DNA of 38,129 bases from a virus (taxonomy: Duplodnaviria; Heunggongvirae; Uroviricota; Caudoviricetes), in the IMG/VR virus record IMGVR_UViG_2627854098_000005. One strand, 5' to 3'. Below are positions 3,069-29,654 of the stretch, piece after piece. The position numbers and the translations under genes are program-made. The notes below the pieces were generated by a model that did not search any database, was not told the origin of the DNA, and saw nothing but the letters and a program-made list of their open reading frames with translations. Each line of letters opens with the position of its first letter. The stretch's first letter is position 1.

Positions 3069-3180
3069 AACTGAAGTTGCCCTGAAAATGAAATTTTTTT
3101 GCACAACCGCAGAACTTTTCCGCAGGGCATCAGTCTTAATTAGTGCCACTGCTTTTCTTTGATGTCCCCATTTTGTGGAG

Positions 3181-3224
3181 CCCATCAACCCCGCCATTTC
3201 GGTTCAAGGTTGATGGGTTTTTTG
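3181..3224 (+). terminator. rho-independent terminator downstream of ybjL
   Basis: Stem CCCATCAACC (3181..3190) pairs with GGTTGATGGG (3208..3217), followed by TTTTTTG. Confidence 0.6.
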
Positions 3225-3303
3225 TTGCCTGAAATTTAAGATGTTTAAAATCATGATGTTAGAAGCACTGTTTTTTAACGATGGCGACAAAATGGCGGCA
3301 GCG

Positions 3304-3522
3304 TCAAAGAGAGAGCGCCACCTGTCCTGATTTCATTGGATGCGGCTGAACTGGATTCGACTCTTTTGGTGTTGCAATCGAACGAACAAAAGTTTCATGG
3401 GTAACAAAAGTATGGCTGCAGTTAATGTTCTGGCACTGGTTATAACGCTCTTTGGTCAATGAAGATACCTGAAAACTGCTGCGAGTATGGGCGGCACTTC
3501 CACACAGTGGGCAAATCATCAT
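3304..3522 (-). CDS. ogr: late-gene transcriptional activator, Ogr/B family C4 zinc finger
   Basis: Product ...MMICPLCGSAAHTRSS...YNQCQNINCSHTFVTHE with CxxC...CxxxxC pattern like P2 Ogr / 186 B; start placed at the ATG at 3522 (track ORF extends to 3555); sits after D at the prophage end. Confidence 0.75.
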   Translation of the reverse strand: MMICPLCGSAAHTRSSFQVSSLTKERYNQCQNINCSHTFVTHETFVRSIATPKESNPVQPHPMKSGQVALSL

Positions 3523-3612
3523 TTTTCGAGTTCTCCCCATTTTTGCTAAATTCACAACAATGATACCGTATTATTCCATTTTGCAAACTTAAAAGTTCTC
3601 CATTGCGAAGAA

Positions 3613-5195: not shown

Positions 5196-8100
5196 GCGTC
5201 GTATCCCCCCTGATCGCTGTAGTTACTCCTGGCTTTTGCCTTCAGCCTGCGTTCACGTTCATCAAGCTGGCGGGCCACCTCCCGTGCAATATCCTGCGCA
5301 CTTTGTCCTGGCTGCGTCTGGATGATGATCTGCGTTGGTGCCTCAATCTGGTAAACGGGCGGCACAGTGACTGCGCGACTCACCATCGCTTCACCGCCTT
5401 TCGCGGGAAGCGCCAAAGGATGCAACGGTGGAAACTCTGCTGGCGCGGCAGCAACGCCCATCATTCCGGCGACAACCGCAGCCAGTGCAGCGGTATTTCT
5501 CCGGCTGGTCACGTTTGCCGGGCCATTGACAATTTCAGGCCCGTTTTCACCGACAATGCCAAACTGCCCGCGCGGGATATAGCCGCCGCGGTCATACATC
5601 CCCGCAAAGCCATATCCCCATGATGGAAAACCACCCGATGACATCATCACTTTACCGTCTGCATTCACCGTCACAGGTTGCTGACGCGTCACGCTTTCCG
5701 GCAGTTTTGCCTTTGCGGCCTCTTTACTGACAATGCCAAGTTTCTCCAGTAACCAGGAAACACCGGATTTCAGGGAGTCCAGCGGATGCATAACCATATT
5801 CAGCCCTTCCGCCAGTGCCTCCCCGAATCGTCGCCCCATTGCCGCTGCGCTCTGCAGTTCGGCAGAGGTCGACTTAACGGGCGTCAGCAGATCAGTAAAC
5901 CAGCCCCACAGCGCCTGTACTTTATCGCCAATCCACTGAAATACAGGCTTAAGTGGTTCGAATGCTGCACTGACGGGACCAGCCGCCGCTTTGAATCCTT
6001 CCACCACGCCACCGAGAAATGCGGTGATGGGTTGCCAGTATTTCCAGACAACCAGCGCCACGCCCGCCAGTGCAGTAACCACAAGACCTATCGGACTGAG
6101 CAGAGCACCTAACAGACCAGATATGGCATACAGGGCAACGCGCAGCATCGCCAGTGGACCAGATGCCAGTACTCGCAGCACCGTGCCTGCGGCGGCCAGT
6201 CCACCGCGCAGTACCGCCAGAGGATTCATAAACATCACAGCAACAGCACGTAAACCGGATAATCCAGACCGCAAAAGTGCAACCGGCGCACCTGCTACAG
6301 TTTTCAGGACATTTCCCGTCAGTGATGCCGTGCGGCGCAAAGACGACAACGGCGCAGTAAGTAAACCTGCGGCGTTGCCCGATGAAGCAAGCCCGCGTCG
6401 CAGCAGTGCCAGTGGTGCGCCAGCCAGCCAGGATAACGCGCTGCTGGTTCGAGTTACTGCTGCCGTAACGGAAGATAACGTTTTGATACCCAACACAGAG
6501 AATCCCAGACGGATCACTGCCAGCGGCCCCAGCACTGCAGCCAGCGCCACCGCTAAGGTGCCGAGGCCGACGGTAACCGCAGCCACAACAGCCGATGCTT
6601 TCATCAGTGTGCCTGTCAGTTCCGGGTTAGCTTCCACCCAGCGACGCAACGCCCCCGTGACGCTTTTCACCGTGTACAGAATATCCATCAGCGGCTGGCG
6701 CAGCGTTTCGCCCAGGCTGCTGAAGGTGTTCTGCGCTCCGGTTTTGACCAGCAACCACTGCGCAGAAAGTGAATCCTTGTTAATGTCGGATTCTTTCTGC
6801 ATGGAGCCGAGCGCATCATTGCCCGCTGTCAGTTTTAACTGACGCTGCAGTTCCGGCAGGTTGTTTGCCAGTTTCGCCGCGTCATCGCCAAACTCTTTAC
6901 CAAACAACATAGTCATGGCAGACAGGCGCTTGTCCTGCGGCAGCGCGTTTACCTTCTCCAGCACGCGCTGGATGGTTCCCATCGCATCCTTCGTCATCTG
7001 CTTTTCAATCACTTCAGGATTGAGTTTCAGCAGATTCATCCCTTCAAAGAAACTCTTGCTTTGCATGGTGGCAATGGACAATTCACGCACCATCGCGTTT
7101 GCTGCACTGGCTGCAACCTCTGGCGCAGCGCCCAGTGTCAGGAAGGTGGAACCCAGCGCCGCCGCTTTACGATAATCCAGACGGTCAGCCACACCGCCCA
7201 GACGTTGCATCACATCAATGATGTCTGCCCCTTTCGACATGGCGTTATCATCCAGATAGTTCAGCGCATCACCGAGCTGTTCAATATTGCGGGTGGGGAT
7301 TTTGTAGAGCTGGGCGATTTTCCCCAGACTTTCTGACAGTTCATCCGCTGGCAGCTCAAAGGCTGTTGCCGCCTTTGCTGCCGTACTGGCGAAGGCCAGC
7401 AGGTCACGTTTCTGATCTTCCCAGCTGTCGTCAGGGTTTGCGACGTTCATGCGCGCACCACCTTCAACCAGTGCAGCGAAGTCCACCGCACCGTTTTCCA
7501 TCGGCAACTGTTCGCTGGCAGCCTTGATGGCATCCTGCATTTCATAAAAACGTGCAGTGCGGTTGCCATTATCGTCACGCAGACCATTGACCTGCTTTGC
7601 CACACCTTTCATGGCATCTTCCATGCTGGTATAGCTTTTTACTGCCGCCATCACTGGCGCACCCATTGCCAGCCCTGCAGCCGTGGTGGTGGCTCCGGCA
7701 CCTGCAATACGATCACGCACCTCCAGCGAACGGGCATAACTGGCACGCGCTGCATTCATCCTGCGCTGAGCTTCCCCCAGTCGCTTCAGCCGCGCCTCCT
7801 GTTTCGAAAGTTCCTGGTTATAACGTGATGTTTCACGGGCTAAACGGGCAGTTGCTCCCGCATCGTCTTTCGCAGAAATTCCCGCCCGGTACAGTTCAGC
7901 ACGCACAAGCGCCGTCTGCTGCTGCAGCTTTTTCTGGCGTTCTTCCAGGCGCTGAACAGCCAGCCGTTGACGGCCCAGAGCAACAACCTGACGTTGCGAA
8001 GGCGGCCCCATCGCTCCCAGTTCCTGACTGAGCAAATTTGCACGCTGGCGGGCATAGTTCAGCCTGTCGCCTAATTTCTGATTTTCTGCCTGCAGCTTTC

Positions 8101-8269
8101 GGAAGCTGTCCAGACTGCTCCCGGCCTGATCAAGCTGCTTTATTGCATCGCGGGATTTTTTGACAGCAGCAGCCAGTTCTCTTGAACTGGCCTGCGCAGA
8201 TCGAAATGGACGGGTGAGCTTGTCAACCGCATTAAGAATGACCTGCAGACGCAGGTTGTTATCACTCAT
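5192..8269 (-). CDS. T: tail tape measure protein
   Basis: 1025-aa Ala/Gly/Leu-rich product with coiled-coil N-terminal region and repetitive hydrophobic segments; position after E/E'. Confidence 0.85.
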   Translation of the reverse strand: MSDNNLRLQVILNAVDKLTRPFRSAQASSRELAAAVKKSRDAIKQLDQAGSSLDSFRKLQAENQKLGDRLNYARQRANLLSQELGAMGPPSQRQVVALGRQRLAVQRLEERQKKLQQQTALVRAELYRAGISAKDDAGATARLARETSRYNQELSKQEARLKRLGEAQRRMNAARASYARSLEVRDRIAGAGATTTAAGLAMGAPVMAAVKSYTSMEDAMKGVAKQVNGLRDDNGNRTARFYEMQDAIKAASEQLPMENGAVDFAALVEGGARMNVANPDDSWEDQKRDLLAFASTAAKAATAFELPADELSESLGKIAQLYKIPTRNIEQLGDALNYLDDNAMSKGADIIDVMQRLGGVADRLDYRKAAALGSTFLTLGAAPEVAASAANAMVRELSIATMQSKSFFEGMNLLKLNPEVIEKQMTKDAMGTIQRVLEKVNALPQDKRLSAMTMLFGKEFGDDAAKLANNLPELQRQLKLTAGNDALGSMQKESDINKDSLSAQWLLVKTGAQNTFSSLGETLRQPLMDILYTVKSVTGALRRWVEANPELTGTLMKASAVVAAVTVGLGTLAVALAAVLGPLAVIRLGFSVLGIKTLSSVTAAVTRTSSALSWLAGAPLALLRRGLASSGNAAGLLTAPLSSLRRTASLTGNVLKTVAGAPVALLRSGLSGLRAVAVMFMNPLAVLRGGLAAAGTVLRVLASGPLAMLRVALYAISGLLGALLSPIGLVVTALAGVALVVWKYWQPITAFLGGVVEGFKAAAGPVSAAFEPLKPVFQWIGDKVQALWGWFTDLLTPVKSTSAELQSAAAMGRRFGEALAEGLNMVMHPLDSLKSGVSWLLEKLGIVSKEAAKAKLPESVTRQQPVTVNADGKVMMSSGGFPSWGYGFAGMYDRGGYIPRGQFGIVGENGPEIVNGPANVTSRRNTAALAAVVAGMMGVAAAPAEFPPLHPLALPAKGGEAMVSRAVTVPPVYQIEAPTQIIIQTQPGQSAQDIAREVARQLDERERRLKAKARSNYSDQGGYDA

Positions 8270-8698
8270 CGTTGGCCCCGCTTCTCTGAATCGCTTTATA
8301 CCGCCATTCCAGCACTTCGGTCAGCGGCATAACGTCAGTAACGGATGGCGGCCAGTGAAAAATGGTGGCGATATCTGCCACCAGATCGTCAACCGTCAGG
8401 CTGTCGGTAAACCGGCAAGCACCGACTTCTTCAACAAAAAAGTGACAACCTCAACCGACATGGCAGTGAGATCTGCCGGGTCCATCTCTGCAATTTCCTG
8501 TGCAGTCAGTGCCGGACTGGAGATGCGGGGGATCACGGTCATCATCGCGTTTACATCCATATCCATAATGGCCTGCAGGCGTGTACCGCGCAGCGCACCG
8601 GACTGCGGTTTACGCAGCACAATTTCGGTGATTTCTGTTTTACCGCGCTTGATGGGGGTATCCAGTTGAATGGTCTTTTCAGTCTGCTTATCGCTCAT
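8262..8698 (-). CDS. tail assembly chaperone E+E' fusion made by programmed -1 frameshift
   Basis: Hand translation of the -1 frame from the T-TTT-TTG slip site is open for 58 codons (VEEVGACRFTDSLTVDDLVADIATIFSWPPSVTDVMPLTEVLGWRYKAIQRSGANDE) and ends at a stop at 8262..8264, overlapping the tape-measure start. Confidence 0.6.
8396..8698 (-). CDS. E: tail assembly chaperone E
   Basis: 100-aa ORF directly upstream of the tape measure; contains the slippery run TTTTTTG on the coding strand at 8435..8441. Confidence 0.75.
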   Translation of the reverse strand: MSDKQTEKTIQLDTPIKRGKTEITEIVLRKPQSGALRGTRLQAIMDMDVNAMMTVIPRISSPALTAQEIAEMDPADLTAMSVEVVTFLLKKSVLAGLPTA

Positions 8699-8752
8699 TT
8701 TGCTGTCCTGTCAATTGGGTTCTGGCGCGGTATCCCGCGCCGTTCAGATATA

Positions 8753-9268
8753 TCAGAGGCCGAGGGCGTTGCGGTGCGCTTCCATCAGGTCCACACCGTC
8801 CACAATTTCCACCATGTTGATAAGGTCCACTTCATAGAGCACCTCACCATTGATGGTCAGCTTCGCGTAGCTGTTGGTACTGGTCACTTTGGTGGTGTTG
8901 CTTTCGCCCGTCTTCCACTCGCCGGAATCCACTTCTTTGTGACGTCCACGCACGACAAGCTCCACGGCCTGCACTTCCCCGGTATCGTCACGCTGAATAG
9001 AGCCGGTAAAGCGCAGCTGGATGCCATCCACCGTGGCTTTACCCATCTGTTTAAACAGCAGCAATTCAGTACCACCAATGGAAAATTCTGTGTCCAGCGC
9101 ACTGTCATCAAGCCCCAGATCCACATCCACCGCACCCGGCATTCCGCCGCCGCGATACTTCTCATATTTGCGGGTAAATTTCGGCAGCGTCAGCGACTCA
9201 ACGATCCCCTGCCAGTTGTTCCCGTCGTTAAACAGGTTCAGGTGTTTTAATTTGCGTGGTAAAGCCAT
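8753..9268 (-). CDS. FII: tail tube protein FII
   Basis: 171-aa product immediately downstream of the sheath gene. Confidence 0.8.
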   Translation of the reverse strand: MALPRKLKHLNLFNDGNNWQGIVESLTLPKFTRKYEKYRGGGMPGAVDVDLGLDDSALDTEFSIGGTELLLFKQMGKATVDGIQLRFTGSIQRDDTGEVQAVELVVRGRHKEVDSGEWKTGESNTTKVTSTNSYAKLTINGEVLYEVDLINMVEIVDGVDLMEAHRNALGL

Positions 9269-9277
9269 GTTGTCCCC

Positions 9278-10450
9278 TTACGCGCTGACCTGGCTGGCGA
9301 AATTCACCAGGTACTGATCGGTGATGCGCTGACGCAGCATCAGGTTTTCAAGTGGCGGCACTGGCGTGTAGTCGTAGTCGATGGTGAGTTTTCCGGCTTT
9401 CAGCGTGTCTTTGTCGTTCACCGACTCATCCAGCCAGCAATCACCACCAATGAGATAGCCCTGACTGACCAGGCTGCGCATTTTGGCGCGGATACCTTCG
9501 ATAATGTCGCGGGCCAGCGACGGGTTAAGCGGTTTATCCACCGCCCACATGTGTGCTTCTGCCATCGTGTCCATCAGCACCTGCGCCGTGCGGGTGTAGT
9601 TTTCGAAGGCAAAGAGCGGGTCATCACTCAGGCAGCGGGAACCCCAGAAGCGGAAACCGTCTTTACGCACAAGCGTGGTGACGTCGTTCTGGTTCAGCAG
9701 ACCTGCATCGGTTGCCGGGTCCTGCAGATCCCAGAACACATCTGCAGAAATTCCGGTGACACCGTTCACGCCCACGTTGGAAAGGCTTTTGTGCCATCCG
9801 GTCTGCTCGTCAATTTTGGCGCGCAGACCAAGTGCACGGGCGGTGGCATATGCCGTTGCTTCGGCATTCAGCACCGTGTCCCAGCCAGTAAAGTCAGGCC
9901 AGATCAGCATCCCTTCGCGCTGGCTGAAGTTTTCGCGGTAAGTGATCGCCTCCTGCACTGTCTTGCAGCCATACGCTGACAGGTAAGCAAATCCACGCAG
10001 GCTTTGCGCCACGCTCAGCAACTCAGTAGCTACCGCCTTGGTGTCGTGGCCTGGCACGCCGAGAATGCGCGGTTTAACGCCGAGCTGTGACTGGGCAGAT
10101 AACAGGGCTTTCATACCTGTTTTTTTACCTTCAGCAGTCACTGCGCCGATGATATTGGTCGTGGTTTCGTCTTCCGTTTCACCCTGCGGCACACGCACAA
10201 CAATGGTCACGGGTTTTGCCTGGTCAGCGATGGCATCCAGCGAACGGGCCAGAGTACCTGACTCACCCGCTTTACTGCTGGCAGTCAGCACATCAGTGAT
10301 CAGCACGGGTTTATTAAGAGGAAACATTTTTGCATCGGCATCATCGCCCGTGCAGACCATACCCACGATGGCGGTGCTCACCGTGGTAATAGATCGGGTG
10401 CCTTCGTTGACTTCAACAACGCGCACCCCGTGGTGGTAATCCTGAGCCAT
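9278..10450 (-). CDS. FI: contractile tail sheath protein FI
   Basis: 390-aa product [13 protein letters not shown]...; first gene of the tail operon. Confidence 0.85.
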
Positions 10451-10526
10451 AGTGGCGAACCTCCTGATTGGATTAGGCTTCGCCCTATGTTGAAGTGATT
10501 GTGCCTGACAAACAGCTAAGCGCAGT

Positions 10527-10544
10527 TGTGTCGTTATTCACACA
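10527..10544. promoter_or_regulatory. TGT-N12-ACA dyad, candidate Ogr-dependent late promoter element for the FI operon
   Basis: TGTgtcgttattcacACA read directly, about 80-95 nt upstream of the FI start codon. Confidence 0.45.
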
Positions 10545-10592
10545 AAATAACAGTATTTGTCTGCTTGCAGGGATAATCAACATAATGCTGAT

Positions 10593-11165
10593 TCAGGGGG
10601 ATTCATTGATCTTATTTGCCGGAAATTTTCTATAAATGGTAGAAACGCCTACATCAAAAATCAGTGCAATACGCTGTATTGATTCTCCGGCCTCGAGTAA
10701 ACGCCCAATCTGTGCCCACTGTTCGGTGGTCAACTTAGGACGGCGTCCACCTACTCTGCCTTTGGCACGAGCTGCAGCCAGCCCTGCCCTGGTACGTTCA
10801 ACTATCAGTTCGCGTTCCATTTCAGCCAGGGCACCCATGACATGAAAAAAGAAACGGCCCATTGGGGTACTGGTATCAATACTGTCAGTCAGGCTTCTGA
10901 AATTCACACCACGCTGGCGCAACTCTTCTATCAGCGTAACAAGATGCCGCATACTGCGCCCCAACCTGTCCAGCTTCCAGACAACCAGCGTGTCTCCTGC
11001 CGATAGTGTCCTGAGCAGTTTTTTCAGCCCCGGTCTGTCGGACTTAGTGCCACTGATTTTGTCCTCAAAAATCCGCTCACATCCCGCGCAGTTCAGTGCA
11101 TTACGTTGCAAATCGGTGTTCTGGTCATTTGTTGACACGCGTACATAGCCAATAAGCATGATCAT
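10593..11165 (-). CDS. serine DNA invertase, Hin/Gin/Pin/Cin family
   Basis: N-terminal resolvase catalytic motif IGYVRVSTNDQ, C-terminal HTH; adjacent to the invertible tail-fibre cassette. Confidence 0.85.
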   Translation of the reverse strand: MIMLIGYVRVSTNDQNTDLQRNALNCAGCERIFEDKISGTKSDRPGLKKLLRTLSAGDTLVVWKLDRLGRSMRHLVTLIEELRQRGVNFRSLTDSIDTSTPMGRFFFHVMGALAEMERELIVERTRAGLAAARAKGRVGGRRPKLTTEQWAQIGRLLEAGESIQRIALIFDVGVSTIYRKFPANKINESP

Positions 11166-11186
11166 CCCCCTGAATAAAAACCGGAG

Positions 11187-11684
11187 ATGATGCCAGTTAG
11201 CTGTTACCTCTGCATTTTCTTAAACGTTGGTTTGGGAGAAGGTGCTCCAGCTATTGGCGTTCCGTTCTTCTGGCCGTCCGCTGCAATGCCAAATACTGTA
11301 ATCGACAGCTGGTCCAGTATGGTGTTTTTGAAGTTCAACGGGGCGAAATTTTCTGCCTCTGATTACCCTGTGCTGGCGAAAGTGTTTCCTTCACTGGTAT
11401 TACCTGAAGCCCGCGGTGATTTCATTCGTATCTGGGATGACGGGCGAGGTGCCGATGGTGGTCGCGAATTATTAAGCTGGCAGGAAGCTACAAACTTTTC
11501 TCAGTTTGCCGGGAATATAGGCGGAGGTGCGGGACACGCAATTAACTTTCATGATGGCATCGCCGGAAATCAGCCAGGATTTTCACGATTTAATTTCACC
11601 AGTAACTCTGTGGGTGATGGTGTGAATTTTGTTGCTGTCAGACCGCGAAATATTGCATTTAACTTTCTGGTGAGGGCTAAATAA
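11187..11684 (+). CDS. alternative tail-fibre C-terminal cassette, silent in this orientation
   Basis: The ORF carries GLGE at the crossover site exactly as H does (H: ...LGLGELALAG); the first ~15 codons lie outside the cassette, so it would only be expressed fused to the H N-terminus after inversion. Confidence 0.55.
   Translation: MMPVSCYLCIFLNVGLGEGAPAIGVPFFWPSAAMPNTVIDSWSSMVFLKFNGAKFSASDYPVLAKVFPSLVLPEARGDFIRIWDDGRGADGGRELLSWQEATNFSQFAGNIGGGAGHAINFHDGIAGNQPGFSRFNFTSNSVGDGVNFVAVRPRNIAFNFLVRAK
11215..11240. repeat. hix/gix-like recombination site, left
   Basis: Reverse complement reads TTCTCCCAAACC-AA-CGTTTAAGAAAA, resembling hixL; in inverted orientation to the site at 13021..13046. Confidence 0.6.
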
Positions 11685-12277
11685 TGAAACCTGTTTTTGA
11701 TGAAAATGGGCTGGCTACAGTGCCTGGCGATATGCGTTGTTTTTATTATGATGCTGAAACATCTGAGTATACGGGCTGGTCTGATGAATATATTAATACT
11801 GGCGTAAGTATGCCCGCCTGTTCCACTGGTATTGACCCTGGCGAAAACATTCCGGGAAGAGTGGCAGTATTTACAGGTAAGGGATGGAGCCATGAAGAAG
11901 ACCATCGCAATGAGACTGTTTACTCAATCGAAAATGGTGCTGCTGTTACAGTGAATTATATCGGTGCCATCAAAAACGGTTATGTCACGCTTTCACCGTT
12001 AACGCCATATGATAAATGGGATGGTGAGAAATGGGTGACAGATACTGAGGCACAACACGGTGCCGCAGTAGAAGCGGCAGAAGCACAGCGCCAGTCACTG
12101 ATTGATGCTGCAATGGCTTCCATCAGTCTGATTCAGCTGAAATTACAGGCCGGGCGGAAGCTGACGCAGGCAGAAACCACCCGGCTTAACGCCGTGCTTG
12201 ATTACATTGACGCGGTGACGGCAACAGATACGAGCACCGCGCCGGATGTCATCTGGCCTGAACTGCCGGAGGCGTAG
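11684..12277 (+). CDS. alternative tail fibre assembly protein
   Basis: 197-aa product with the conserved C-terminal ...TSTAPDVIWPELPEA tail seen in the other assembly gene; overlaps the cassette stop. Confidence 0.7.
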   Translation: MKPVFDENGLATVPGDMRCFYYDAETSEYTGWSDEYINTGVSMPACSTGIDPGENIPGRVAVFTGKGWSHEEDHRNETVYSIENGAAVTVNYIGAIKNGYVTLSPLTPYDKWDGEKWVTDTEAQHGAAVEAAEAQRQSLIDAAMASISLIQLKLQAGRKLTQAETTRLNAVLDYIDAVTATDTSTAPDVIWPELPEA

Positions 12278-12683
12278 GCCATTCAATATCTGGAGCACTG
12301 GAGGTATCAACCAGTTCCAGTGCGTCCAGATAATCCAGCCACAAATTATATTGCGCCAGTTCCTCACCTTTCAGACGACCAATAGCCGCTTTACCAGGCC
12401 ATTGCTTGGTATTTATATATTCGTTGGACTGATTAATCAATTGCTGTTTTTTCAATTCGGCTGCGGCAATCTGTTCCTCATGCGTTGGTGGTGGAATTTC
12501 AGACCATGCAGGAAAACCATTTTCCCCAGCGATACGGATTTTTCCTTTCGGCGGTAATCCGGAAAACTCAATATACACCTGCTCATCAACTTCAACAGCA
12601 TCATCTGGCCATGAATTTACATTGATGTAGTCATCCTTAAGCGCAGGATTCACAAAAATATTTAAAGATGGACTAAAAAACAC
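12249..12683 (-). CDS. G: tail fibre assembly protein (gpG-like), currently expressed copy
   Basis: 144-aa product with C-terminal ...DTSSAPDIEWPTPPA; directly downstream of H. Confidence 0.75.
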   Translation of the reverse strand: MFFSPSLNIFVNPALKDDYINVNSWPDDAVEVDEQVYIEFSGLPPKGKIRIAGENGFPAWSEIPPPTHEEQIAAAELKKQQLINQSNEYINTKQWPGKAAIGRLKGEELAQYNLWLDYLDALELVDTSSAPDIEWPTPPAVQAR

Positions 12684-12684
12684 A

Positions 12685-14082
12685 TCACCCTCCTATAGCA
12701 ACATAACAGCCCGATACAGGATTTGCGGCAGTCGCTACGCTGGAAAAACCACGAAAGCCGCTTTTTGTGATTGCGGAAGCAGATAGTATTCCGGCACCCG
12801 AAGGTGTATGCCCCACGTGGCTGGCAACCATCACGTAGCACGCCGACGGAAAAGCGAAAGGGAAATTGTTTAAATATCCCGCATCATCCCCCAGACTTCC
12901 CCCAAACTGCCCCACTCCCCACTGGATAATAAGTGGTCTCCGAACGCCAGAAATAATTAATGGAATTGCTACATACCCATTCACCAACATAGCGCCGGTT
13001 GTTGCGCCAGCCAGAGCCAATTCCCCCAAACCAAGGTATGTGAGAAGACCAGCTACATCCTTTCCACTCAAATTGGTAAGCGTATTGTCCAGCGGTTGTT
13101 TACCTGCCAGCGCATTAAGCATTGTCGTGGCAAAGTTCGGATCATTCCCCAGTGCCGCCGCCAGTTCGTTCAGTGTATCCAGTGCAGCAGGTGCAGAACC
13201 CACCATTCCTGCAATCGCCGATTTCACAAAAGCCGTAGTGGCAATCTGTGTATTGTTGACCGACTGCGCCGCCGTGGGGGCTGTTGGCGTTCCGGTGAGT
13301 GCCGGACTCGACAACGGTGCTTTTAGTGCCAGCGCATTGTTAATGGTGGTACTGAAATTCGGATCATTGTTAATGGCTGCGGCTATTTCTTTCAGCGTGT
13401 CCAGCGTGGCTGGCGCACCATTAATAAGGGCCGTCAGTGCCGCCTGTACAAACGCAGTGGTCGCAACCTGCGTGGTATTATTTCCCGCCGCTGGCGTTGG
13501 CGCTTTGGGGGTTCCGGTAAATGTCGGGCTGGCTTTTGGCGCGTACTGTAAATGCGGGTCCGGTGCGGCAAGATGTTTTGCCATCTGATCATCCGCGTAC
13601 ACCTTCAGCTCCAGTGCCTTGTCATCCACATACTTGCGGGTTGCCAGCACTACAGCAGGGTCGATTTTCAGGGTGATATTGTCCGTGCTGCTGGTAATCA
13701 GCACCATGCGCACGGTCTGAGTGCGCCCGCTACCTTCAGCCAGTTGCGGCTTATAGCTTTCCGGGCAGTTGCCCACGGCAATCAACGCCCCGGACTCATC
13801 AAACAAGCCCACTTCACGTATCCACCAACCGCCCTCGTTTTCAGGGATCACCTGTTCGGCAATAATCTGGCTGCTGTTCTGCGGGTCGATATAAAGCATA
13901 TTCAGCGCAGCCCGGCGTTTCTCATTTACCAGTGCCGTCTGCTTTGCGTCCGGCGTTGGCAATACTCCACCGCCATCGCCCACCGCCATATGGGTAATTT
14001 TTAGCGGCACACCGAGCGCGGCGGCGCTGGCAAGTTTCGCCGCGCCAATATCCGTCAGCAGGGTATAAAATTTTGTGCTCAT
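12685..14082 (-). CDS. H: tail fibre protein H, constant N-terminus plus currently selected variable C-terminus
   Basis: 465-aa product with repeated ...TTAFV... / NDPNF segments typical of P2-type fibres; hix-like site embedded at codons for LGLGE. Confidence 0.85.
   Translation of the reverse strand: MSTKFYTLLTDIGAAKLASAAALGVPLKITHMAVGDGGGVLPTPDAKQTALVNEKRRAALNMLYIDPQNSSQIIAEQVIPENEGGWWIREVGLFDESGALIAVGNCPESYKPQLAEGSGRTQTVRMVLITSSTDNITLKIDPAVVLATRKYVDDKALELKVYADDQMAKHLAAPDPHLQYAPKASPTFTGTPKAPTPAAGNNTTQVATTAFVQAALTALINGAPATLDTLKEIAAAINNDPNFSTTINNALALKAPLSSPALTGTPTAPTAAQSVNNTQIATTAFVKSAIAGMVGSAPAALDTLNELAAALGNDPNFATTMLNALAGKQPLDNTLTNLSGKDVAGLLTYLGLGELALAGATTGAMLVNGYVAIPLIISGVRRPLIIQWGVGQFGGSLGDDAGYLNNFPFAFPSACYVMVASHVGHTPSGAGILSASAITKSGFRGFSSVATAANPVSGCYVAIGG
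13021..13046. repeat. hix/gix-like recombination site, right, inside H
   Basis: TTCCCCCAAACC-AA-GGTATGTGAGAA read directly; inverted partner of 11215..11240. Confidence 0.6.
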
Positions 14083-14684
14083 GGATTCACTCTCATTGTG
14101 TCAATAACATGGACCGCCCCGCCTTCATGCGCGGTGCCACCGGAAATAATCGTTTCGTTGATATACGGATAGATCGTGATTTCTTCGCCAAGATAGCTGG
14201 CGGCTCCCACCCAATGCGGGCCGCTGGTCTGCAGATTGATGGACATGCCGATCATGTGGCGGCTACATGGTTTGGCATCGCTTATCAGTCGCTCAAGTTC
14301 CAGATAGGTATCTTCAGTGATGCCCTGGTCCTGCACGCCGATATCCAGGCGAAACGTGCCCGGTGTTTCTCCGGTCTGCCACCACTCAATAATGCGGATC
14401 AGGAATCCGAACGGCTCCACCACCCGCCGCACGGCACTGGTGGTCCCTTTATGCTGATGAATATAAAAAGCATCCTTCACCACCTGGCGCTTGACGCTTT
14501 CTGTCCAGCCCTCGTCCCAGCGATCCACAGAGAACGCCCAGGCGAGATAAGGCAGGAAACTGACCGGACAGGTTGCCGGATTCCACAAGTCACGAAGCGG
14601 CACCTGCAGATCAGAAATCCCGCTGCAGGTTTGCGCCAGTCGGCGCTCCAGTGGTGTTGAACCCGGTGGCAGCAGACTATTCAT
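14079..14684 (-). CDS. I: baseplate assembly protein I
   Basis: 201-aa product; 4-nt overlap with the H start. Confidence 0.8.
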   Translation of the reverse strand: MNSLLPPGSTPLERRLAQTCSGISDLQVPLRDLWNPATCPVSFLPYLAWAFSVDRWDEGWTESVKRQVVKDAFYIHQHKGTTSAVRRVVEPFGFLIRIIEWWQTGETPGTFRLDIGVQDQGITEDTYLELERLISDAKPCSRHMIGMSINLQTSGPHWVGAASYLGEEITIYPYINETIISGGTAHEGGAVHVIDTMRVNP

Positions 14685-15585
14685 CCGTTCCTCCGTTGGT
14701 TACGCTCCACTGCGTACATGATGCCGCCTGTGTTTTGTTCAGGACCACATCCGCCAAAGGAGAAGCCAGCTCCACACGCTGCACCCCCTCAACATGCAGG
14801 GCGGCAAAGATGGCGCTACGGCGAATATCCCGACCAAGACGCGTCTGACTGGCGATGTACTTCTGCAGGCTGGCTTTTGCCGCTGCCATTACCGGCTCTG
14901 CTTCCGGTCCAGGATAGAGAAAAATGGTGGCTTCCACGCGATACGGGATGATTTCTGCGCTGCGAACCGTAAGACGGTCAGCCACCGGGCGGACGTTCTC
15001 ACTGTTCAGAGCTTTTTCCACCACGTCCAGCAGGTCTTTTTCTGCAGTTCCATCGCCTTCGCGGCTAAGGACAGTCAGCACCACCTCTGCAGGTGCCGGG
15101 CTGGTTGCACTGGCATCCGCCACCCGACCGTCGGCGCTTCGGGCATGAAATTCATAAGCTGCAGTTGGCCCCGCAACAGAAAGCCCTTCAAAGGCTGCAG
15201 GCACACGCAGGCGCAACGCTTCATCGCTTTCCATCACAGCTGCAACGGGCGGCACAGCATCATTATCAGCAGGCGTCACCGTCAGGCGTGTCACGTTGTA
15301 GTTGGCAGCGAGCTGGTCAAGATCGCCGCCCATCGCGTAAGCCACCATCACCGCCTGCGCGGCTTCGTTAATGCGCTGGCGCAGAAGCAACTCACGGTAA
15401 GCGTTCTCCTGCAACAATTTAGTGGCGGGTTCAGATTCCAGTTCCAGCGTGCGGATCACTGCTTCCTGCTCATCTTTCGGATGAAGCGCCACAAATTCTG
15501 CCTTGCGTTCGGCAAGCAGCGTCTCAAAGTCCGGCACATCCACAATCTGCGGTGCAGGCAACTGCGAAAGGTCAATCACTGCCAT
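14677..15585 (-). CDS. J: baseplate assembly protein J
   Basis: Start placed at MAVIDLSQLPAP (ATG at 15585) inside the longer track ORF, as in P2 gpJ. Confidence 0.8.
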   Translation of the reverse strand: MAVIDLSQLPAPQIVDVPDFETLLAERKAEFVALHPKDEQEAVIRTLELESEPATKLLQENAYRELLLRQRINEAAQAVMVAYAMGGDLDQLAANYNVTRLTVTPADNDAVPPVAAVMESDEALRLRVPAAFEGLSVAGPTAAYEFHARSADGRVADASATSPAPAEVVLTVLSREGDGTAEKDLLDVVEKALNSENVRPVADRLTVRSAEIIPYRVEATIFLYPGPEAEPVMAAAKASLQKYIASQTRLGRDIRRSAIFAALHVEGVQRVELASPLADVVLNKTQAASCTQWSVTNGGTDE

Positions 15586-15931
15586 TCTCTGCTCCTGTTG
15601 ATACGGAAAGGGACACAGGCACACCGTTATTCCGCCGCCCGGTCAGCTCCACCACCATTGAACCGTCAAAATTGCTGTTGATGGTGATGGAATCCAGCGT
15701 CAACCGTGGCTCCCAGCGACTCAGCGCCACATACACTGCCGACATGACCTGCAGGCGTAATGCCGGATTTTGTGGCTGATCTATCAGTGCCGACAGCAGG
15801 GAACCATATTCCCGGCGGGCAATACGGCTACCCTGCGGTGTCAGCAGAATGTCCCGCACCGACTGGCGCAGATGATCAATATCAGTAATGACTTTGCCGC
15901 TGGTATTATTCATCCCGCTATAAAGCGTCAT
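15572..15931 (-). CDS. W: baseplate wedge protein W (gp25-like)
   Basis: 119-aa product between V and J. Confidence 0.8.
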   Translation of the reverse strand: MTLYSGMNNTSGKVITDIDHLRQSVRDILLTPQGSRIARREYGSLLSALIDQPQNPALRLQVMSAVYVALSRWEPRLTLDSITINSNFDGSMVVELTGRRNNGVPVSLSVSTGAENGSD

Positions 15932-16521
15932 ACCGGGCCTCCGGTTGTATCGCCGCCTTTCAGGACGCCAGTATGCTGATGCGCATCAACCACGATCCCG
16001 TTAGAACTCATCGCTCCGCCGCCCTGGGTAACGCCACCATTGATCACCACTTCGCTGTTAATGCGCGTGCGGTCAGCCTCCAGTACAAACTCACTGGTTT
16101 TCATGGTGATGTTGTCAGCAGCCTCAATGACCATTGATTTGATGCCCCTGACATACCAGCGCCCGGTGGCGGGTTCGTATTCAAACCAGCCACCGTCAGG
16201 ATGTTCTGTCACGCAGGCGTCCGCCGACGTCGACGGTGGTGCGAACTGATTCGAATAGATGGCGGGCAGCGCAAACGCGGTTTCCAGATTGCCGCCCATG
16301 CTCAGCACCACCACCTGCTCATCTGGCGACGGGCACCACCATGTACGGGCACCAGCGGCGCGTAGCGTCAGCCAGTTAATCCAGTTGGTTTCAAGCTCGC
16401 CTACCTTCACCCGGCACAGCCATTTGTTCCGGTCCACTTCGGTCACAATGCCGGTGCGGATCAGATTGGTGATAAGGCGCATAATTTCTGTGAGTTGTGC
16501 GTTCATGGTTGCAGTTTGCAT
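15928..16521 (-). CDS. V: baseplate spike/assembly protein V
   Basis: 197-aa product; the true start may be the second ATG at 16506. Confidence 0.8.
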   Translation of the reverse strand: MQTATMNAQLTEIMRLITNLIRTGIVTEVDRNKWLCRVKVGELETNWINWLTLRAAGARTWWCPSPDEQVVVLSMGGNLETAFALPAIYSNQFAPPSTSADACVTEHPDGGWFEYEPATGRWYVRGIKSMVIEAADNITMKTSEFVLEADRTRINSEVVINGGVTQGGGAMSSNGIVVDAHQHTGVLKGGDTTGGPV

Positions 16522-16551
16522 GAAATCAAAAGAAAATAGTGATTTTCAAAT

Positions 16552-16569
16552 TGTATGAAGGGTCTTACA
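16552..16569. promoter_or_regulatory. TGT-N12-ACA dyad, candidate late promoter element for the V-W-J-I-H-G operon
   Basis: TGTatgaagggtcttACA read directly in the short V / cargo-gene spacer. Confidence 0.4.
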
Positions 16570-16574
16570 ATCCA

Positions 16575-18407
16575 ATGAATTACAATGAAGAGCTAACCTC
16601 ATATCTTAATTATTTAGTGGATCTTGAAAAATCCCCTAATTTCGCAGTAATGATTGACGGCGAATGGGGAAGCGGGAAAACATGGTTTGTCCGTAAATTA
16701 ATGAATGAAGAATCACTAAAAGGGAAAGTTAAGCCATTAATGATCTCATTATATGGAATAAAATCCACCGAACAAATTGACGAAATAATTTTCAAGCAAA
16801 TGCATCCCTTCCTTTCATCTAAAGGCATGTTGCTTGCTGGCACACTAACTAAGGCACTAATTAAAGGCACACTTAAGATTGATTTAAGTGATTCATTCGT
16901 TACAAGTGTAGAGGGCTCCCCAGAACTACCCAACGTAAGCATTAAAGACTTTTACTACTCACCAGAAAACACCATATTGATATTTGATGATCTTGAACGC
17001 TGCGAATTAGATTGGAATTCTATATTTGGTTATATAAATAATTTCGTTGAAGAAAAAGAATGCAAGGTTTTGATTATCGCCAATGAGAGAGAAATATTAA
17101 ACCCCGCTAGAAATAAAAATCATGATGGTATTTATTTAGATGCAAAAGAAAAAGTTATAGGTATAACTTTCAAATATCAACCTCAACATTCTCACGCCTA
17201 CGAATATTTTCTAAAAAATATAACTAGCGAACTCAACACCATTCTGAACATAAAAAATATTGAGAGCTTACTCACTCTTTCAGAGTGTAATAACATTAGA
17301 TTAATTGAAAGGCAAATTTCTTTTTTTGAAAGAATATTCAAAATATTACCAGCACAGTTTCAGCAAAATTCAGATTTGACACTCAGATTATATCAATTAC
17401 ATTTTATACTCTATTTTGAATCTAATAAAATAAAACGAACCGTTTCTGACTTGTTAACATATAAAATAGATGATGATAATAAATACACATCCAATTTAAT
17501 TGAAAAATATGGTACAACTTATTTGTCAAATTTAATCTTAGACGAGGATACCTGGATCGATATAATTGACAATCAGAAAATCAATCAAGAAAAAATAATA
17601 TCTGAATTAATAACATTCGTCAGTGTTTCTAATAAAACAATTGAGCCATGGACACAACTTTGGAATTATGATCGATTAAAATACACAGAATTTGAGGAAA
17701 ATTACAATTCAACACTTCATACGCTTATTAATTTTGAAATATTGAACGAGCATGTTCTTAAGCATATTTACGGATTATTACTTCATTTATCCAGAGAACA
17801 TATAAAACCCATCAACGAACACTATTTAACAAACTTAGCCCACTCTGCTGTTGATATTTTAGCAGAAAAAGGAATGATACAAACTAGTTATGAAATTTTT
17901 GATGAAGACATTAAGGATGAGCGATGGAGAGGATTAACTTTTCATTGCAAAGAAACTAGGGAATTCAAGGAGCTTGTTAATTACATAGAACAAAAGAAAA
18001 ATGTATTAATTGCATATCAACTTAGCCAAGACGCTCAAAAGATATTCAAATTAATACAGTCCGGAAATCATGAATATTACGCACATCTAAATTTCAACAA
18101 CAAAGATATTTATTCATTTCACGACAAACCAGTTCTTTATTTTGGTGATGCTGAACAACTAACAAAAATACTGATAGACTCAACCGAGATGCATTTCTTT
18201 GGCTATGCTATAAAAAACCGATACAACAACACCCCTTATCTAAAAGAGCTTTCTGCAGAGCGTTTTTTCCACCGCGAGCTAATTAGAAAGCTAATTGAAA
18301 AGAAAACTCAAATAAACTCAAATATATTATCATTACAAATCGATGAGCTCATAAATGATTGTTTAACTCCCGCAATAGATAAATTAAAGCAAAGCATTGA
18401 AAATTAA
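16575..18407 (+). CDS. KAP-family P-loop NTPase, candidate phage-exclusion/abortive-infection protein
   Basis: Walker A GEWGSGKT and Walker B-like ILIFDDLER; AT-rich; opposite strand to the flanking late genes; ATG at 16575 preferred over the track GTG start at 16539 because the late promoter dyad lies between them. Confidence 0.7.
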   Translation: MNYNEELTSYLNYLVDLEKSPNFAVMIDGEWGSGKTWFVRKLMNEESLKGKVKPLMISLYGIKSTEQIDEIIFKQMHPFLSSKGMLLAGTLTKALIKGTLKIDLSDSFVTSVEGSPELPNVSIKDFYYSPENTILIFDDLERCELDWNSIFGYINNFVEEKECKVLIIANEREILNPARNKNHDGIYLDAKEKVIGITFKYQPQHSHAYEYFLKNITSELNTILNIKNIESLLTLSECNNIRLIERQISFFERIFKILPAQFQQNSDLTLRLYQLHFILYFESNKIKRTVSDLLTYKIDDDNKYTSNLIEKYGTTYLSNLILDEDTWIDIIDNQKINQEKIISELITFVSVSNKTIEPWTQLWNYDRLKYTEFEENYNSTLHTLINFEILNEHVLKHIYGLLLHLSREHIKPINEHYLTNLAHSAVDILAEKGMIQTSYEIFDEDIKDERWRGLTFHCKETREFKELVNYIEQKKNVLIAYQLSQDAQKIFKLIQSGNHEYYAHLNFNNKDIYSFHDKPVLYFGDAEQLTKILIDSTEMHFFGYAIKNRYNNTPYLKELSAERFFHRELIRKLIEKKTQINSNILSLQIDELINDCLTPAIDKLKQSIEN

Positions 18408-18432
18408 AATAAAGCCCAGATCGCCACTGGGC
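18401..18432 (-). terminator. rho-independent terminator ending the O-to-S late operon
   Basis: Hairpin GCCCAG-atcgcca-CTGGGC at 18414..18432; on the minus strand it is followed by a U-rich tract. Confidence 0.55.
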
Positions 18433-18447
18433 AACAATATACGCAAG

Positions 18448-18891
18448 TTATGAAATACAATATATCAAAAATCTCTCAACTTCTTTTTTAATAGGCTCAT
18501 TAATACCTAGCAAGCATCGTCTGGAATAATGAACTATCGGCCCACGTTTACTGACACGATCACGCAGTCCATAATGGTGAACACGGGCAATGCGCTGCAC
18601 CTTACCTTCAAACTGCACGCTGGCAGAATCGGCGCTGGCGGCAGTTTTCAGGTATTTTGTGGTGCGCAGCTTCGCAAACATCTGACGTTTGATGCGGCCT
18701 TTTTTACTGCGCGCTGTTACCCGTCGCGGCTCATAACTACTGCCATCTGGATTGCGCTGCATCCTGATGTTTTGCTGCTGTGTCCGGCGCAGCTCCTGTG
18801 CCAGTTGGCGCATCATGCGACTTCTTGCAGCTGGCTCCAGATTCGCCAGTAAGGCACTCAGCCAGTCGTCCACTTTCTGCAATTCAGCCAC
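18448..18891 (-). CDS. S: tail completion protein S
   Basis: 147-aa product following R. Confidence 0.75.
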   Translation of the reverse strand: MAELQKVDDWLSALLANLEPAARSRMMRQLAQELRRTQQQNIRMQRNPDGSSYEPRRVTARSKKGRIKRQMFAKLRTTKYLKTAASADSASVQFEGKVQRIARVHHYGLRDRVSKRGPIVHYSRRCLLGINEPIKKEVERFLIYCIS

Positions 18892-27240: not shown

Positions 27241-28509
27241 TTAATTTGGCAACTCCAAATCATCCTTTAGATCTTTGATATCTTGATGTTGCAACCATAT
27301 TAGGAAGCCTTTATCAACAACATTCAGTTTCCTATTTGTTTGGTCATAATCCAAAATAATAGGCATTATATTTTTCTTTATTTGCAAAGACGCCGTTGAT
27401 TGTAACGACTGAGTAACATTACCCAGGTTTAACTTCTCCCCTCTTGGATGTACACTTTGTAATATTGCCCTTATATCTTTAAATTTCAAACCTAATTCAA
27501 GTTCACTAATGGTTGATGAAAGGACAGGATATAAAATCCATTTATGCATTTGAAGTTCAGTATCTTGAAATCCATCTGAAAAATTAATAAGGAAAGAATT
27601 GTAACGAGCCGATTGGTCATTAACAATTTTTGCAATGATATCCTTTCCATCCAAACCAGCTCCAATAGTTCTTTTTGTTTGCTGAGTCTCTGATATTCCG
27701 CATTCAATACACGCACGCCTACATGCTTCTTGCACTAAATAAATACTATTGAGACAGTGTGTTACTACATCTGCTTTGAAAGTTGGATCAAAATCAATGT
27801 TAAGGAGTAAACCTCCTTTATCAATTGCCATCTCCAGTTCAGAATCTTGCCATTTGTCTGCGTTAACAGAAATAATCCTGCCAGTTAAGTCACCATTGTA
27901 AACAATGAGCCGATTATCTTCTAGCCAAACTCCAACAATTACAAAAATAATGCTTGATGTTTCATGAAAGGCTTTTAATGCGATCGAAAAATCTCTTTGA
28001 GTTTCGAAAGGCATATAATGAAAATCCTCAAGAACGATAATCTTCTTGAAATTTATAGATTTTAAAGCCGCTATAACATCATTAACATCATCAACATCAA
28101 TTTCTAAAGGCGCGGTTACTTGTTCATGAGATTTCGTATCTTCGATCTCGCCTCCGGCACTCGCCACAAAACCCAAAATAGAAGTTTTTATTGATGCGAT
28201 TATTTTATTTTTCCCCGTAATACCTTTCTTGGTAGACTGAGTTATTTCGAATCCAGCTCTTTTTAAAATACTTGCATTCAATTCAGATACATCAGAACGA
28301 TTCGAACACTGCACCAAAATATAATCATCAGAATTAATACAGTGTTTTCTTACGCAAGTCTTACCCTGCTTTGAACTGCCGTAAATAACAATATGTTTCT
28401 TTGCTTGTAATTCCTGTTTAAGTTTGAAATCAACATCAGGTCTTTCAATGTAATTAAGTGGCAAATCTCTTGAGAGCCCAAAGATATCATTCGTATCAAA
28501 AATTTCCAT
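27241..28509 (-). CDS. P-loop ATPase (AAA-like), cargo gene of unknown function
   Basis: Walker A IVIYGSSKQGKT near the N-terminus and Walker B-like KKIIVLEDFH about 110 aa later; AT-rich; no resemblance to phage structural proteins. Confidence 0.65.
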   Translation of the reverse strand: MEIFDTNDIFGLSRDLPLNYIERPDVDFKLKQELQAKKHIVIYGSSKQGKTCVRKHCINSDDYILVQCSNRSDVSELNASILKRAGFEITQSTKKGITGKNKIIASIKTSILGFVASAGGEIEDTKSHEQVTAPLEIDVDDVNDVIAALKSINFKKIIVLEDFHYMPFETQRDFSIALKAFHETSSIIFVIVGVWLEDNRLIVYNGDLTGRIISVNADKWQDSELEMAIDKGGLLLNIDFDPTFKADVVTHCLNSIYLVQEACRRACIECGISETQQTKRTIGAGLDGKDIIAKIVNDQSARYNSFLINFSDGFQDTELQMHKWILYPVLSSTISELELGLKFKDIRAILQSVHPRGEKLNLGNVTQSLQSTASLQIKKNIMPIILDYDQTNRKLNVVDKGFLIWLQHQDIKDLKDDLELPN

Positions 28510-28913: not shown

Positions 28914-29654
28914 ATGACTGTGCACAAGCTCTCTGGTGCGTTTTTCCACGATATGCAGGTTGAGTGGCCCTGCCCTAACTGCAATCAGAAAACCCTACAG
29001 ATCATTAAAGAAAGTTTCGTCTCGTATGACACACATGATACCCGAAAATTCCGCAGTGAAGATTGGTTTGAACTAGAAATGGATTCATCTATTTTCAGTT
29101 GCATGGCCCGCTGTTCAAGAATGCAATGTGGTGAAGTTGTGGCCTGTACTGGTAAGAGTGGATGGGAACAAGGTTGGGATGAAGAAAGAAATGATATTGA
29201 GTACTATCAATGGCACAGACCTTTCACCTTTTACCCATCACTGCATCCTTTCGAAATACCTGAAAAATGCCCAGAAGAAATTACCGAACCGCTTGAAGCC
29301 TCATTTTCCATTTTCCTAATACAGCCTGGCGCAGCAGCAAACCTAATTCGAATTTCAGTTGAAAGAATGCTAACCGCTATGGATGTAGCTGAACGTAATG
29401 ATAATGGCAAACGCATAACTCTACACCACCGTTTAGGGATGCTACCTGAATTATACGGATCGTTTTCAAGACCTCTTATGGCAATTAAATTTTTAGGAAA
29501 TGCCGGAAGCCATACCTACGATGAAGTAAAAGTCAAAGACATTGAGGATGCTTTTGAGATTATGGAGTACGTCGTCAATGACTTGTTCTCCGGTCGCAAA
29601 GAATCTGTCGAAGTATTGACGAAACGATTAAGTGAAAAATTCAAAGAAAACTGA
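28914..29654 (+). CDS. zinc-ribbon protein with uncharacterised C-terminal domain, cargo gene
   Basis: N-terminal CPNC ... CMARC/CSRMQC cysteine pairs; C-terminal region with LGNAGSH motif; AT-rich. Confidence 0.6.
   Translation: MTVHKLSGAFFHDMQVEWPCPNCNQKTLQIIKESFVSYDTHDTRKFRSEDWFELEMDSSIFSCMARCSRMQCGEVVACTGKSGWEQGWDEERNDIEYYQWHRPFTFYPSLHPFEIPEKCPEEITEPLEASFSIFLIQPGAAANLIRISVERMLTAMDVAERNDNGKRITLHHRLGMLPELYGSFSRPLMAIKFLGNAGSHTYDEVKVKDIEDAFEIMEYVVNDLFSGRKESVEVLTKRLSEKFKEN

Follow-up and report, generated by a model that had tools for sequence, protein, structure and literature searches.

PifA of the F plasmid is a KAP protein (Pfam KAP_NTPase, E = 3e-43) that is reported to sense gp1.2 and gp10 of phage T7 and, itself devoid of transmembrane (TM) helices, to act through membrane depolarisation and nucleotide leakage (PMC8594841; Tmn preprint). 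Single-gene KAP nucleoside triphosphatases (NTPases) of the EF_KAP type, whose C-terminal region has no known function, confer up to 6 logs of protection in Enterococcus faecalis, and this protection requires Walker B as well as the C-terminal region (PMC13552941). Reve, a single-gene KAP system from P4-satellite hotspots, protects Escherichia coli (PMC13586616), and the YobI-family membrane NTPase Tmn senses a phage protein by means of a helical solenoid arm (Tmn preprint). Here we describe a KAP-family gene found in IMG/VR virus record IMGVR_UViG_2627854098_000005 (Caudoviricetes), a stretch of 38,129 nucleotides, hereafter the window, which finds its match in a P2-like prophage lying between ybjL and rcdA in E. 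coli APEC IMT5155. The gene (16575..18407, plus strand; positions are those of the window) lies by itself between the minus-strand genes V and S, and probably represents a horizontally acquired, single-gene anti-phage module of the PDC-S49 family, borne as a prophage moron in the S-V (orf30) slot.

A KAP gene of the PDC-S49 family

The preliminary description of the window had read a KAP NTPase signature in the product of this gene, and profile searches bore it out. The Pfam KAP_NTPase model (PF07693) recognises the protein with 60 bits, its cutoff being 20 (E = 3e-16), and aligns residues 19-240 of a 622-aa form of the protein with profile positions 5-253 of 293; elsewhere in this text residue numbers refer to a 610-aa form (see below) unless the longer one is named. 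Among defence profiles, all three PADLOC models for PDC-S49 match over their full length (E = 1e-134, 6e-133 and 1e-74), the best match spanning residues 14-618 of the 622-aa form and profile positions 3-617 of 619. By these matches the gene is a member of a catalogued candidate family within the KAP class, a class recently validated in other members. PHROG 4740, to which no function is assigned, also recognises the protein (2e-60). A search of NCBIfam gave no match, NACHT, AAA_22 and similar Pfam models remained below their cutoffs, and a sequence search of the PDB with the family profile returned trivial P-loop matches only (E >= 0.29).

Both nucleotide-binding motifs are present and are invariant at their core positions in 48 family members. 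Walker A, GEWGSGKT (residues 29-36; 16659..16682, on the plus strand like all features of the gene), contributes G29, W31, G32, G34 and K35; Walker B, ILIFDDLER (residues 134-142; 16974..17000), contributes D138, D139, E141 and R142. The other positions invariant in these members are N240-x-R242, E282, W359, P519, R549 and Y550, and the invariant residues of the C-terminus include no HEPN or nuclease motif. No TM segment was detected, in keeping with the earlier remark that a TM insert was missing: the highest 19-aa Kyte-Doolittle mean along the protein is 0.98. In the founding description of KAP proteins, TM helices inserted in or next to the NTPase domain are said to be typical of the family. 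Their absence here does not exclude membership, since PifA is also without TM helices.

Nor was a conserved partner gene found, across six kinds of genomic context. Neighbours differ in every context examined, which identifies PDC-S49 as a single-gene family and agrees with what had been surmised from the window. The family is large and uniform. Clustering at 90% yielded 542 homologues from Gamma- and Betaproteobacteria, Cyanobacteria and Bacteroidota, all of about 600-690 aa and covered over their full length, and an exhaustive profile search collected, at E <= 1e-30, 3,659 clusters defined at 50% identity. Of these clusters the best 150 measure 430-728 aa, nearly all of them 580-730, match almost the whole profile in one or two stretches, and include none with a large fused extra domain.

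The plus-strand open reading frame (ORF) extends from 16539 to 18407, as first reported, and both of its proposed starts exist: a GTG at 16539 would give 622 aa and an ATG at 16575 gives 610 aa. The product is likely the 610-aa protein, because the ATG and the first residues after it are kept in a 61%-identical allele at the same site, the GTG is not, and the RefSeq entry annotated by the Prokaryotic Genome Annotation Pipeline (PGAP) corresponds to the shorter form (WP_001108703.1, 'P-loop NTPase fold protein'). The GTG was thus rejected as the main start. With its stop codon the 610-aa product accounts for 16575..18407. An antisense ORF of 110 aa (16610..16942) lies inside the conserved coding region and was treated as spurious. 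The AT-richness that had drawn attention to the gene is pronounced: GC content across it runs at 26-36%, against 52-60% in both flanks, and overall GC and third-position GC are 30.8% and 27.8%, compared with 57% and 65% in gene V.

The 61%-identical allele occupies the same V-S slot in another P2-like prophage. An allele of 60% identity (618 aa; 8001..9857 in metagenome contigs) is intact within a heavily decayed P2 remnant at the same ybjL site, where about 170 bp upstream of it, comprising P_V and a stub of V, are retained almost unchanged; this looks like domestication of a cargo gene. The remnant is stripped of most of its structural and replication genes (head, tail-sheath/tube, lysis) and keeps only tail/baseplate fragments, a CI-type repressor and an integrase; a GIY-YIG gene lies near the allele. 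Between the 60%- and 61%-identical alleles the ratio of nonsynonymous to synonymous substitution rates (dN/dS, ω) is about 0.14, and all segments of the gene are under purifying selection among prophage alleles. The same ratio was uninformative between near-identical copies, which differ by 4 synonymous and 5 nonsynonymous changes.

More distant relatives occur in other mobile contexts. An allele of 28% identity (PDC-S49 match, E = 3e-156) resides in the P2 gpA-portal hotspot of 46 of 5,426 complete E. coli genomes. It adjoins a 384-aa RES-domain protein in KE47 (8947..12407) and ParA-family and SIR2-family proteins in MIN6 (6052..10271), neighbours that may be further defence genes. Pseudomonas homologues (about 7200..17900) are found in islands that also contain two serine recombinases, one small and one large, and a YagK/YfjJ-family gene; one island splits comM (Mg-chelatase-like), and the other also carries HigBA and an N6/N4 methylase beside an unclassified 335-aa gene. 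The small serine recombinase fits the 'RADS' marker idea (PMC13552941). A Flavobacterium homologue sits among housekeeping genes, and full-length members are present in six plasmid records.

Taken together, family membership, placement among defence genes in P2 hotspots and mobile islands, purifying selection that continues after prophage decay, exchange of the cassette between prophages (see below) and validated precedents lead us to infer an anti-phage role for the gene, whose product, probably made from the prophage, would shield the lysogen from attack by other phages. The preliminary description had called it a strong candidate for a single-gene anti-phage system. The full-length PDC-S49 match and the defence-type context sustain the word candidate and no more than that word, the family being itself a computational prediction. 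The gene is thus a credible prophage-borne defence gene of a kind already known, and is less novel than had been implied.

The cargo slot between genes S and V

In the phage P2 record, gene S is followed by the rho-independent terminator of the O operon, by orf30, which is nonessential and lies on the opposite strand, by the activator-binding site of P_V, and by V. The window shows the same order: the end of S at 18448, a hairpin at 18414-18432, the opposite-strand KAP gene, a TGT-N12-ACA box, and V. The KAP gene therefore lies between the O-operon terminator and the P_V activator site, opposite to the late genes, at a place that can also be empty. The earlier assignment to the position of P2 orf30 is in this way matched by P2's own annotation, and the term moron suits a single AT-rich gene. 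The left flank of the slot is the baseplate gene V (15928..16521, minus strand; PGAP start at 16506, longer ORF to 16521), and the right flank is the tail-completion or virion morphogenesis gene S (18448..18891, minus strand). The KAP gene fills the gap between two late operons, a location that accounts for the tolerance of the site for cargo.

The TGT-N12-ACA box (16552..16569, minus strand) is presumed, from its sequence, its conservation and the annotation of P2, to be the Ogr/Delta activator site of the late promoter P_V. In the P2 record an activator-binding site is placed about 55 nt upstream of where transcription of V begins, and the centre of the box in the window is about 55 nt from the V start at 16506. 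The box is kept in filled and in empty sites; as an element of the phage backbone it delimits the cargo slot on the left. Past the other end of the gene, a GC-rich hairpin followed by a T-run (18414..18432, minus strand) is presumed to be the O-operon terminator after S, on the strength of a terminator scan, its sequence and the P2 equivalent. It was the sole terminator-like site in the scan, a count not above shuffled expectation, so that the assignment was made by position. The T-run of this minus-strand terminator overlaps the KAP stop codon (TAA, 18405-18407), and convergent transcripts therefore share one hairpin; on its plus-strand side the hairpin is not followed by a U-run.

Because the KAP start codon abuts the P_V activator box, the promoter of the gene must overlap P_V or the 5′ end of V. 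The best plus-strand promoter site (−10 TACAAT, 16566-16571) was rejected as the KAP promoter, being too close to the ATG. The same arrangement of start codon and activator box is seen for P2 orf30. Expression of the cargo gene and Ogr-driven activation of the late genes may hamper one another.

Related flanks were detected in 1,053 of the 5,426 E. coli genomes. An even sample gave about 52 places with both flanks joined, 33 of them empty (1,230 bp) and 19 occupied, and the slot is also empty in phage 500465-1. The KAP gene is a rare occupant, present in 10 of the 5,426 genomes, with all copies at least 99.5% identical and all chromosomal. Other occupants belong to the SIR2 family (PADLOC: LmuA/ThsA-like, 1e-22), the AIPR family (AbiU, 1.7e-24), and the FRG-domain (PDC-S15, 7e-27) and TIR-domain (weak PDC-S66 / SpbK) proteins; a DUF6216 occupant had no PADLOC match, and further ones are annotated as a PcfJ-domain protein, several hypothetical proteins and IS1. 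The cargos of P2 (orf30, 261 aa), Cartapus (176 aa) and Klebsiella phage Kp4865-2 (503 aa) match no defence model, and homology of the KAP protein to any of these three was rejected, none having been found. The Kp4865-2 ORF (2234..3745, minus strand) stands on the late-gene strand of its V-S slot and gives weak P-loop matches only (AAA_7, E = 0.003; ORC-CDC6-like, E = 0.008), so that it may be described as an unclassified ATPase cargo.

The S-V slot is thus a minor cargo site of mixed purpose, in which single genes of defence type are often found. P2 hotspots have been described in the literature as the gpA-portal (old/tin) site, Z/fun and the tail-CI site, or loosely as 'within the tail genes', and the S-V slot was not singled out in the published descriptions examined. 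Modestly new, then, are the behaviour of the orf30 slot as a fourth defence-cargo site and the recurrence of PDC-S49 in both P2 sites. As to how the gene arrived, the cassette is 99.5% identical between prophages whose flanks share 91-94% identity, and a search for boundary repeats around it returned short AT-rich chance matches only. With no flanking repeats, transposition or site-specific insertion was rejected and recombination within the conserved flanks is favoured.

The window prophage has further cargo. Its portal-DinI-like/gpA hotspot holds two more candidate defence genes (27241..28509, minus strand; 28914..29654, plus strand): a 422-aa AAA-like protein matching PADLOC PDC-S59 over its full length (E = 5e-72), and a DUF4145 protein of 246 aa (Pfam, E = 5e-13) that weakly matches the validated system PD-T7-4 (E = 1.6e-5). 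Counting the KAP gene, two sites of this prophage thus harbour at least three candidate defence genes. At about 10590..12280, at the Z/fun-equivalent position, the RefSeq annotation of an identical prophage indicates an invertible tail-fibre host-range segment, in which a recombinase-family (invertase) gene lies beside a truncated tail-fibre fragment and opposed tail-fibre assembly genes.

Domain architecture, possible mechanism and alternatives

The N-terminal 235 or so residues fold like AAA+ ATPases of the ORC/Cdc6, TnsC and NLR type and comprise an AAA+/STAND-like P-loop ATPase core together with the first lid helices (residues 1-235; 16575..17279). The remaining 375 residues (236-610; 17280..18404), starting with the invariant N240-x-R242 helix, are confidently modelled as an all-helical, solenoid-like domain, for which a fold search found no significant structural match and no enzyme fold. 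This bears on two statements made about the C-terminal ~400 aa in the preliminary description. That the region contains no nameable motif holds good, in that nothing matched it; it is not a novel addition, being conserved throughout a uniform family of thousands. As for its being a new effector or sensor, the helical model devoid of enzyme matches argues for the latter alternative: a sensor or scaffold appears more likely than an effector. Between the two E. coli subfamilies identity is 22% in the C-terminal region against 38% in the ATPase core, the C-terminus thus diverging faster.

Within the core, a conserved insert of 50 aa (residues 77-126; 16803..16952) separates helix α2 from the Walker B strand. 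It has a fixed length, conforms to the motif HP.LSSKGM..aGki.KgllKgTlKiDld, and is the slowest-evolving segment of the protein (ω about 0.07-0.14). Its helix (residues 81-102, 22 residues) has a charge of +3 to +6 (family median +5), with all lysines within an 80° arc, and its hydrophobic moment reaches, for the family, the 93.5th percentile within the same protein. The tail that follows (residues 103-126) has a charge of −1 to −7 (median −5). A KAP family without TM helices and with a conserved bipartite insert is modestly new, and these properties suggest the insert as a possible effector.

We envisage the protein as a nucleotide-driven switch built like a STAND/AAA+ ATPase. In this scheme the C-terminal solenoid-like domain would, more speculatively, sense a phage component, and sensing would permit the N-terminal P-loop domain to oligomerise in an ATP-dependent manner. 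Delivery of the output, again a more speculative step, might fall to the insert, which lies between Walker A and B and would sit where KAP proteins such as EF_KAP carry a TM helix within the NTPase domain. At rest the acidic tail next to it would shield the cationic amphipathic helix of the insert; activation would uncover and cluster the helix, which would then disturb the inner membrane in the manner of PifA, by depolarisation or leakage, so as to stop phage growth. As no relative has a large extra domain, the effector must lie within the common body of ~600 aa, and a masked membrane-active helix is favoured because the insert is the most constrained segment and presents a lysine-faced amphipathic helix followed by an acidic stretch. 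The scheme may be generalised, at a level we regard as doubtful, to PDC-S49 proteins as sensor-switch-effector machines. In them the KAP TM hairpin would have been replaced by a masked, antimicrobial peptide-like cationic helix (+5) with its acidic tail (−5), and phage-triggered, ATP-driven oligomers would unmask and bundle the helices to breach the inner membrane, a resistosome-like killing that dispenses with a separate effector domain and operates from a fourth, hitherto little-noticed P2 slot, S-V.

A number of points weigh against the defence reading or the mechanism just outlined. PDCs are putative candidates obtained by 'guilt-by-embedding', most of them unvalidated (PMC12988326), and a literature search found no publication on PDC-S49 or WP_001108703.1. 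Full-length members are absent from all 50,697 deposited phage genomes searched. Expression in the lysogen is a prediction: a sigma-70 promoter scan gave 10 sites against 10.1 expected from shuffles, none of which stands out, and the activator box ends at 16569, 5 nt before the KAP ATG. In the protein, the more speculative designation of the C-terminal domain as a sensor comes solely from the missing enzyme fold and a somewhat faster divergence. The insert of the window protein itself has a modest hydrophobic moment (0.32 against a family median of 0.42), and its model is of low confidence, with a predicted local distance difference test score (pLDDT) below 50 for residues 84-122. ORC/Cdc6, TnsC and MuB, the top fold matches of the protein, are AAA+ proteins that bind DNA and would point just as well to nucleic acid as the target. 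Finally, EF_KAP protects at low as well as high multiplicity of infection and hence not by abortive infection, unlike the PifA-type model (PMC13552941).

The fold matches bring up the main rival within defence, namely that the protein assembles in an ATP-dependent manner on incoming or replicating phage DNA, like ORC/Cdc6, TnsC or MuB, and blocks replication or packaging while the cell is not killed. The Lys-rich insert would then be an initiator-specific motif on DNA and the acidic tail an autoinhibitory DNA mimic. However, the charges of the insert very nearly cancel (+5 then −5), and its hydrophobic face is conserved; both halves of the protein are net acidic (−8 and −11), and neither Pfam nor the fold search revealed a DNA-binding domain. 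KAP relatives, moreover, are linked to membranes rather than DNA, and ORC/Cdc6 proteins tend to top the matches of any ASCE/AAA+ core, which makes their ranking weak evidence. A nucleic-acid target thus seems to us quite unlikely. Defence might also proceed by energy depletion or ion export in place of membrane lysis, through a triggered, unrestrained ATPase of the sort reported for Tmn, which raises ATP turnover and exports Mg2+, causing plasmolysis (Tmn preprint). The ATPase is indeed the only recognisable catalytic site, no other enzyme fold having been found, and Tmn likewise combines a P-loop NTPase with a helical solenoid sensor arm. Yet Tmn belongs to the separate YobI family and forms a decamer integral to the membrane, it is not easy to see how a protein without TM helices would export ions, and depletion of ATP by a low-abundance ATPase alone would be kinetically demanding; this mode of action strikes us as very improbable.

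A broader objection is that the gene is not anti-phage at all but serves mobile elements, in a selfish or accessory capacity, in some other role: it could encode a toxic ATPase of the addiction type, control the maintenance or induction of the prophage, or influence host physiology. The 'defence' sites that house it would then simply be places permissive for insertion. The defence role of PDC-S49 is, after all, a prediction; an inter-operon gap tolerates anything, as occupants matching no defence model (P2 orf30, DUF6216, and the Cartapus 176-aa and Kp4865-2 503-aa proteins) would illustrate; the Flavobacterium homologue keeps company with housekeeping genes; and the authors of the BASEL study raise the possibility that even PifA's primary role is not immunity (PMC8594841). 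Against this, PDC-S49 recurs in independently validated defence hotspots together with SIR2, RES, AbiU-like and toxin-antitoxin genes, purifying selection persists in a prophage that has otherwise decayed and so speaks against a part in the life cycle of the phage, and other KAP proteins with unknown C-termini do protect. Exchange of the cassette between diverged prophages and a patchy distribution across phyla are, in addition, typical of defence genes. We consider a function outside defence unlikely, and retain a single-gene anti-phage module as the favoured interpretation.

Should the gene protect, it would give experimental standing to a large, uniform family (~3,700 clusters at 50% identity in Proteobacteria, Cyanobacteria and Bacteroidota), and the S-V (orf30) gap would join the list of P2 defence-cargo sites. 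The protein would also be a compact, soluble model in which to follow how the perception of a phage leads to an antiviral output in KAP NTPases, a question that dates from PifA and has lately been taken up again in the KAP papers of 2026. In practical terms the gain is modest, PADLOC having already listed the family and other members of the class having been validated.

Comparison with known systems

PifA, which the preliminary description had invoked as a relative, is indeed a fellow KAP protein. The two proteins have in common the GxWGSGKT and DDL[D/E]R motifs (GAWGSGKT and VVMDDLDR in PifA, GEWGSGKT and LIFDDLER in the window protein) and the downstream [N/T]xR helix, and both are carried by mobile elements and have no TM helices. 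The kinship is limited to the NTPase domain: hhalign (probability 81%) detects similarity over some 44 columns around Walker A only. PifA is longer (741 aa), has an unrelated C-terminus, places ~150 aa between Walker A and B, and is without the HP.LSSKGM...KGTLKIDLD insert. It is also paired with the repressor gene pifC, whereas no pifC-like gene lies beside the window gene. With neither full-length orthology to PifA nor linkage to pifC, the gene falls outside the Pif system.

Compared by description only, EF_KAP and three metagenomic KAP+RUF proteins have the same plan as the window protein, a single polypeptide linked to mobile DNA in which a KAP NTPase is followed by more than 300 aa containing no recognisable domain. 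They differ in that EF_KAP possesses two TM helices, one of them inside the NTPase domain, and the window protein none; the hosts of these proteins are Firmicutes, and their C-termini are called diverse by the authors, whereas that of PDC-S49 is conserved. Reve, likened to the window gene by description only, likewise consists of one gene, which encodes ATPase/KAP P-loop domains and comes from the P2/P4 mobilome of E. coli. It is carried by P4 satellites and not by P2, and P2 and P4 almost never exchange defence genes (PMC13586616).

STAND and initiator AAA+ proteins (Avs/NLR, ORC/Cdc6, TnsC, MuB, BrxC) resemble the window protein in their core. The tripartite STAND layout, in which an effector precedes a NACHT/NB-ARC NTPase and a repeat sensor, is not that of the window protein: Walker A begins at residue 29, leaving no N-terminal effector, and the C-terminus is not a recognisable TPR, LRR or WD40 array.

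With respect to position, P2 orf30 offers the same slot, the same opposite-strand orientation and the same AT-rich, foreign character as the KAP gene, and encodes an unrelated protein (261 aa, no family match). The accessory hotspots of P2 (old/tin, Z/fun) follow the same logic as the S-V slot at other positions. With the PADLOC family PDC-S49, itself a computational candidate, the gene agrees in length, single-gene organisation and KAP domain, and nothing structural sets the two apart.

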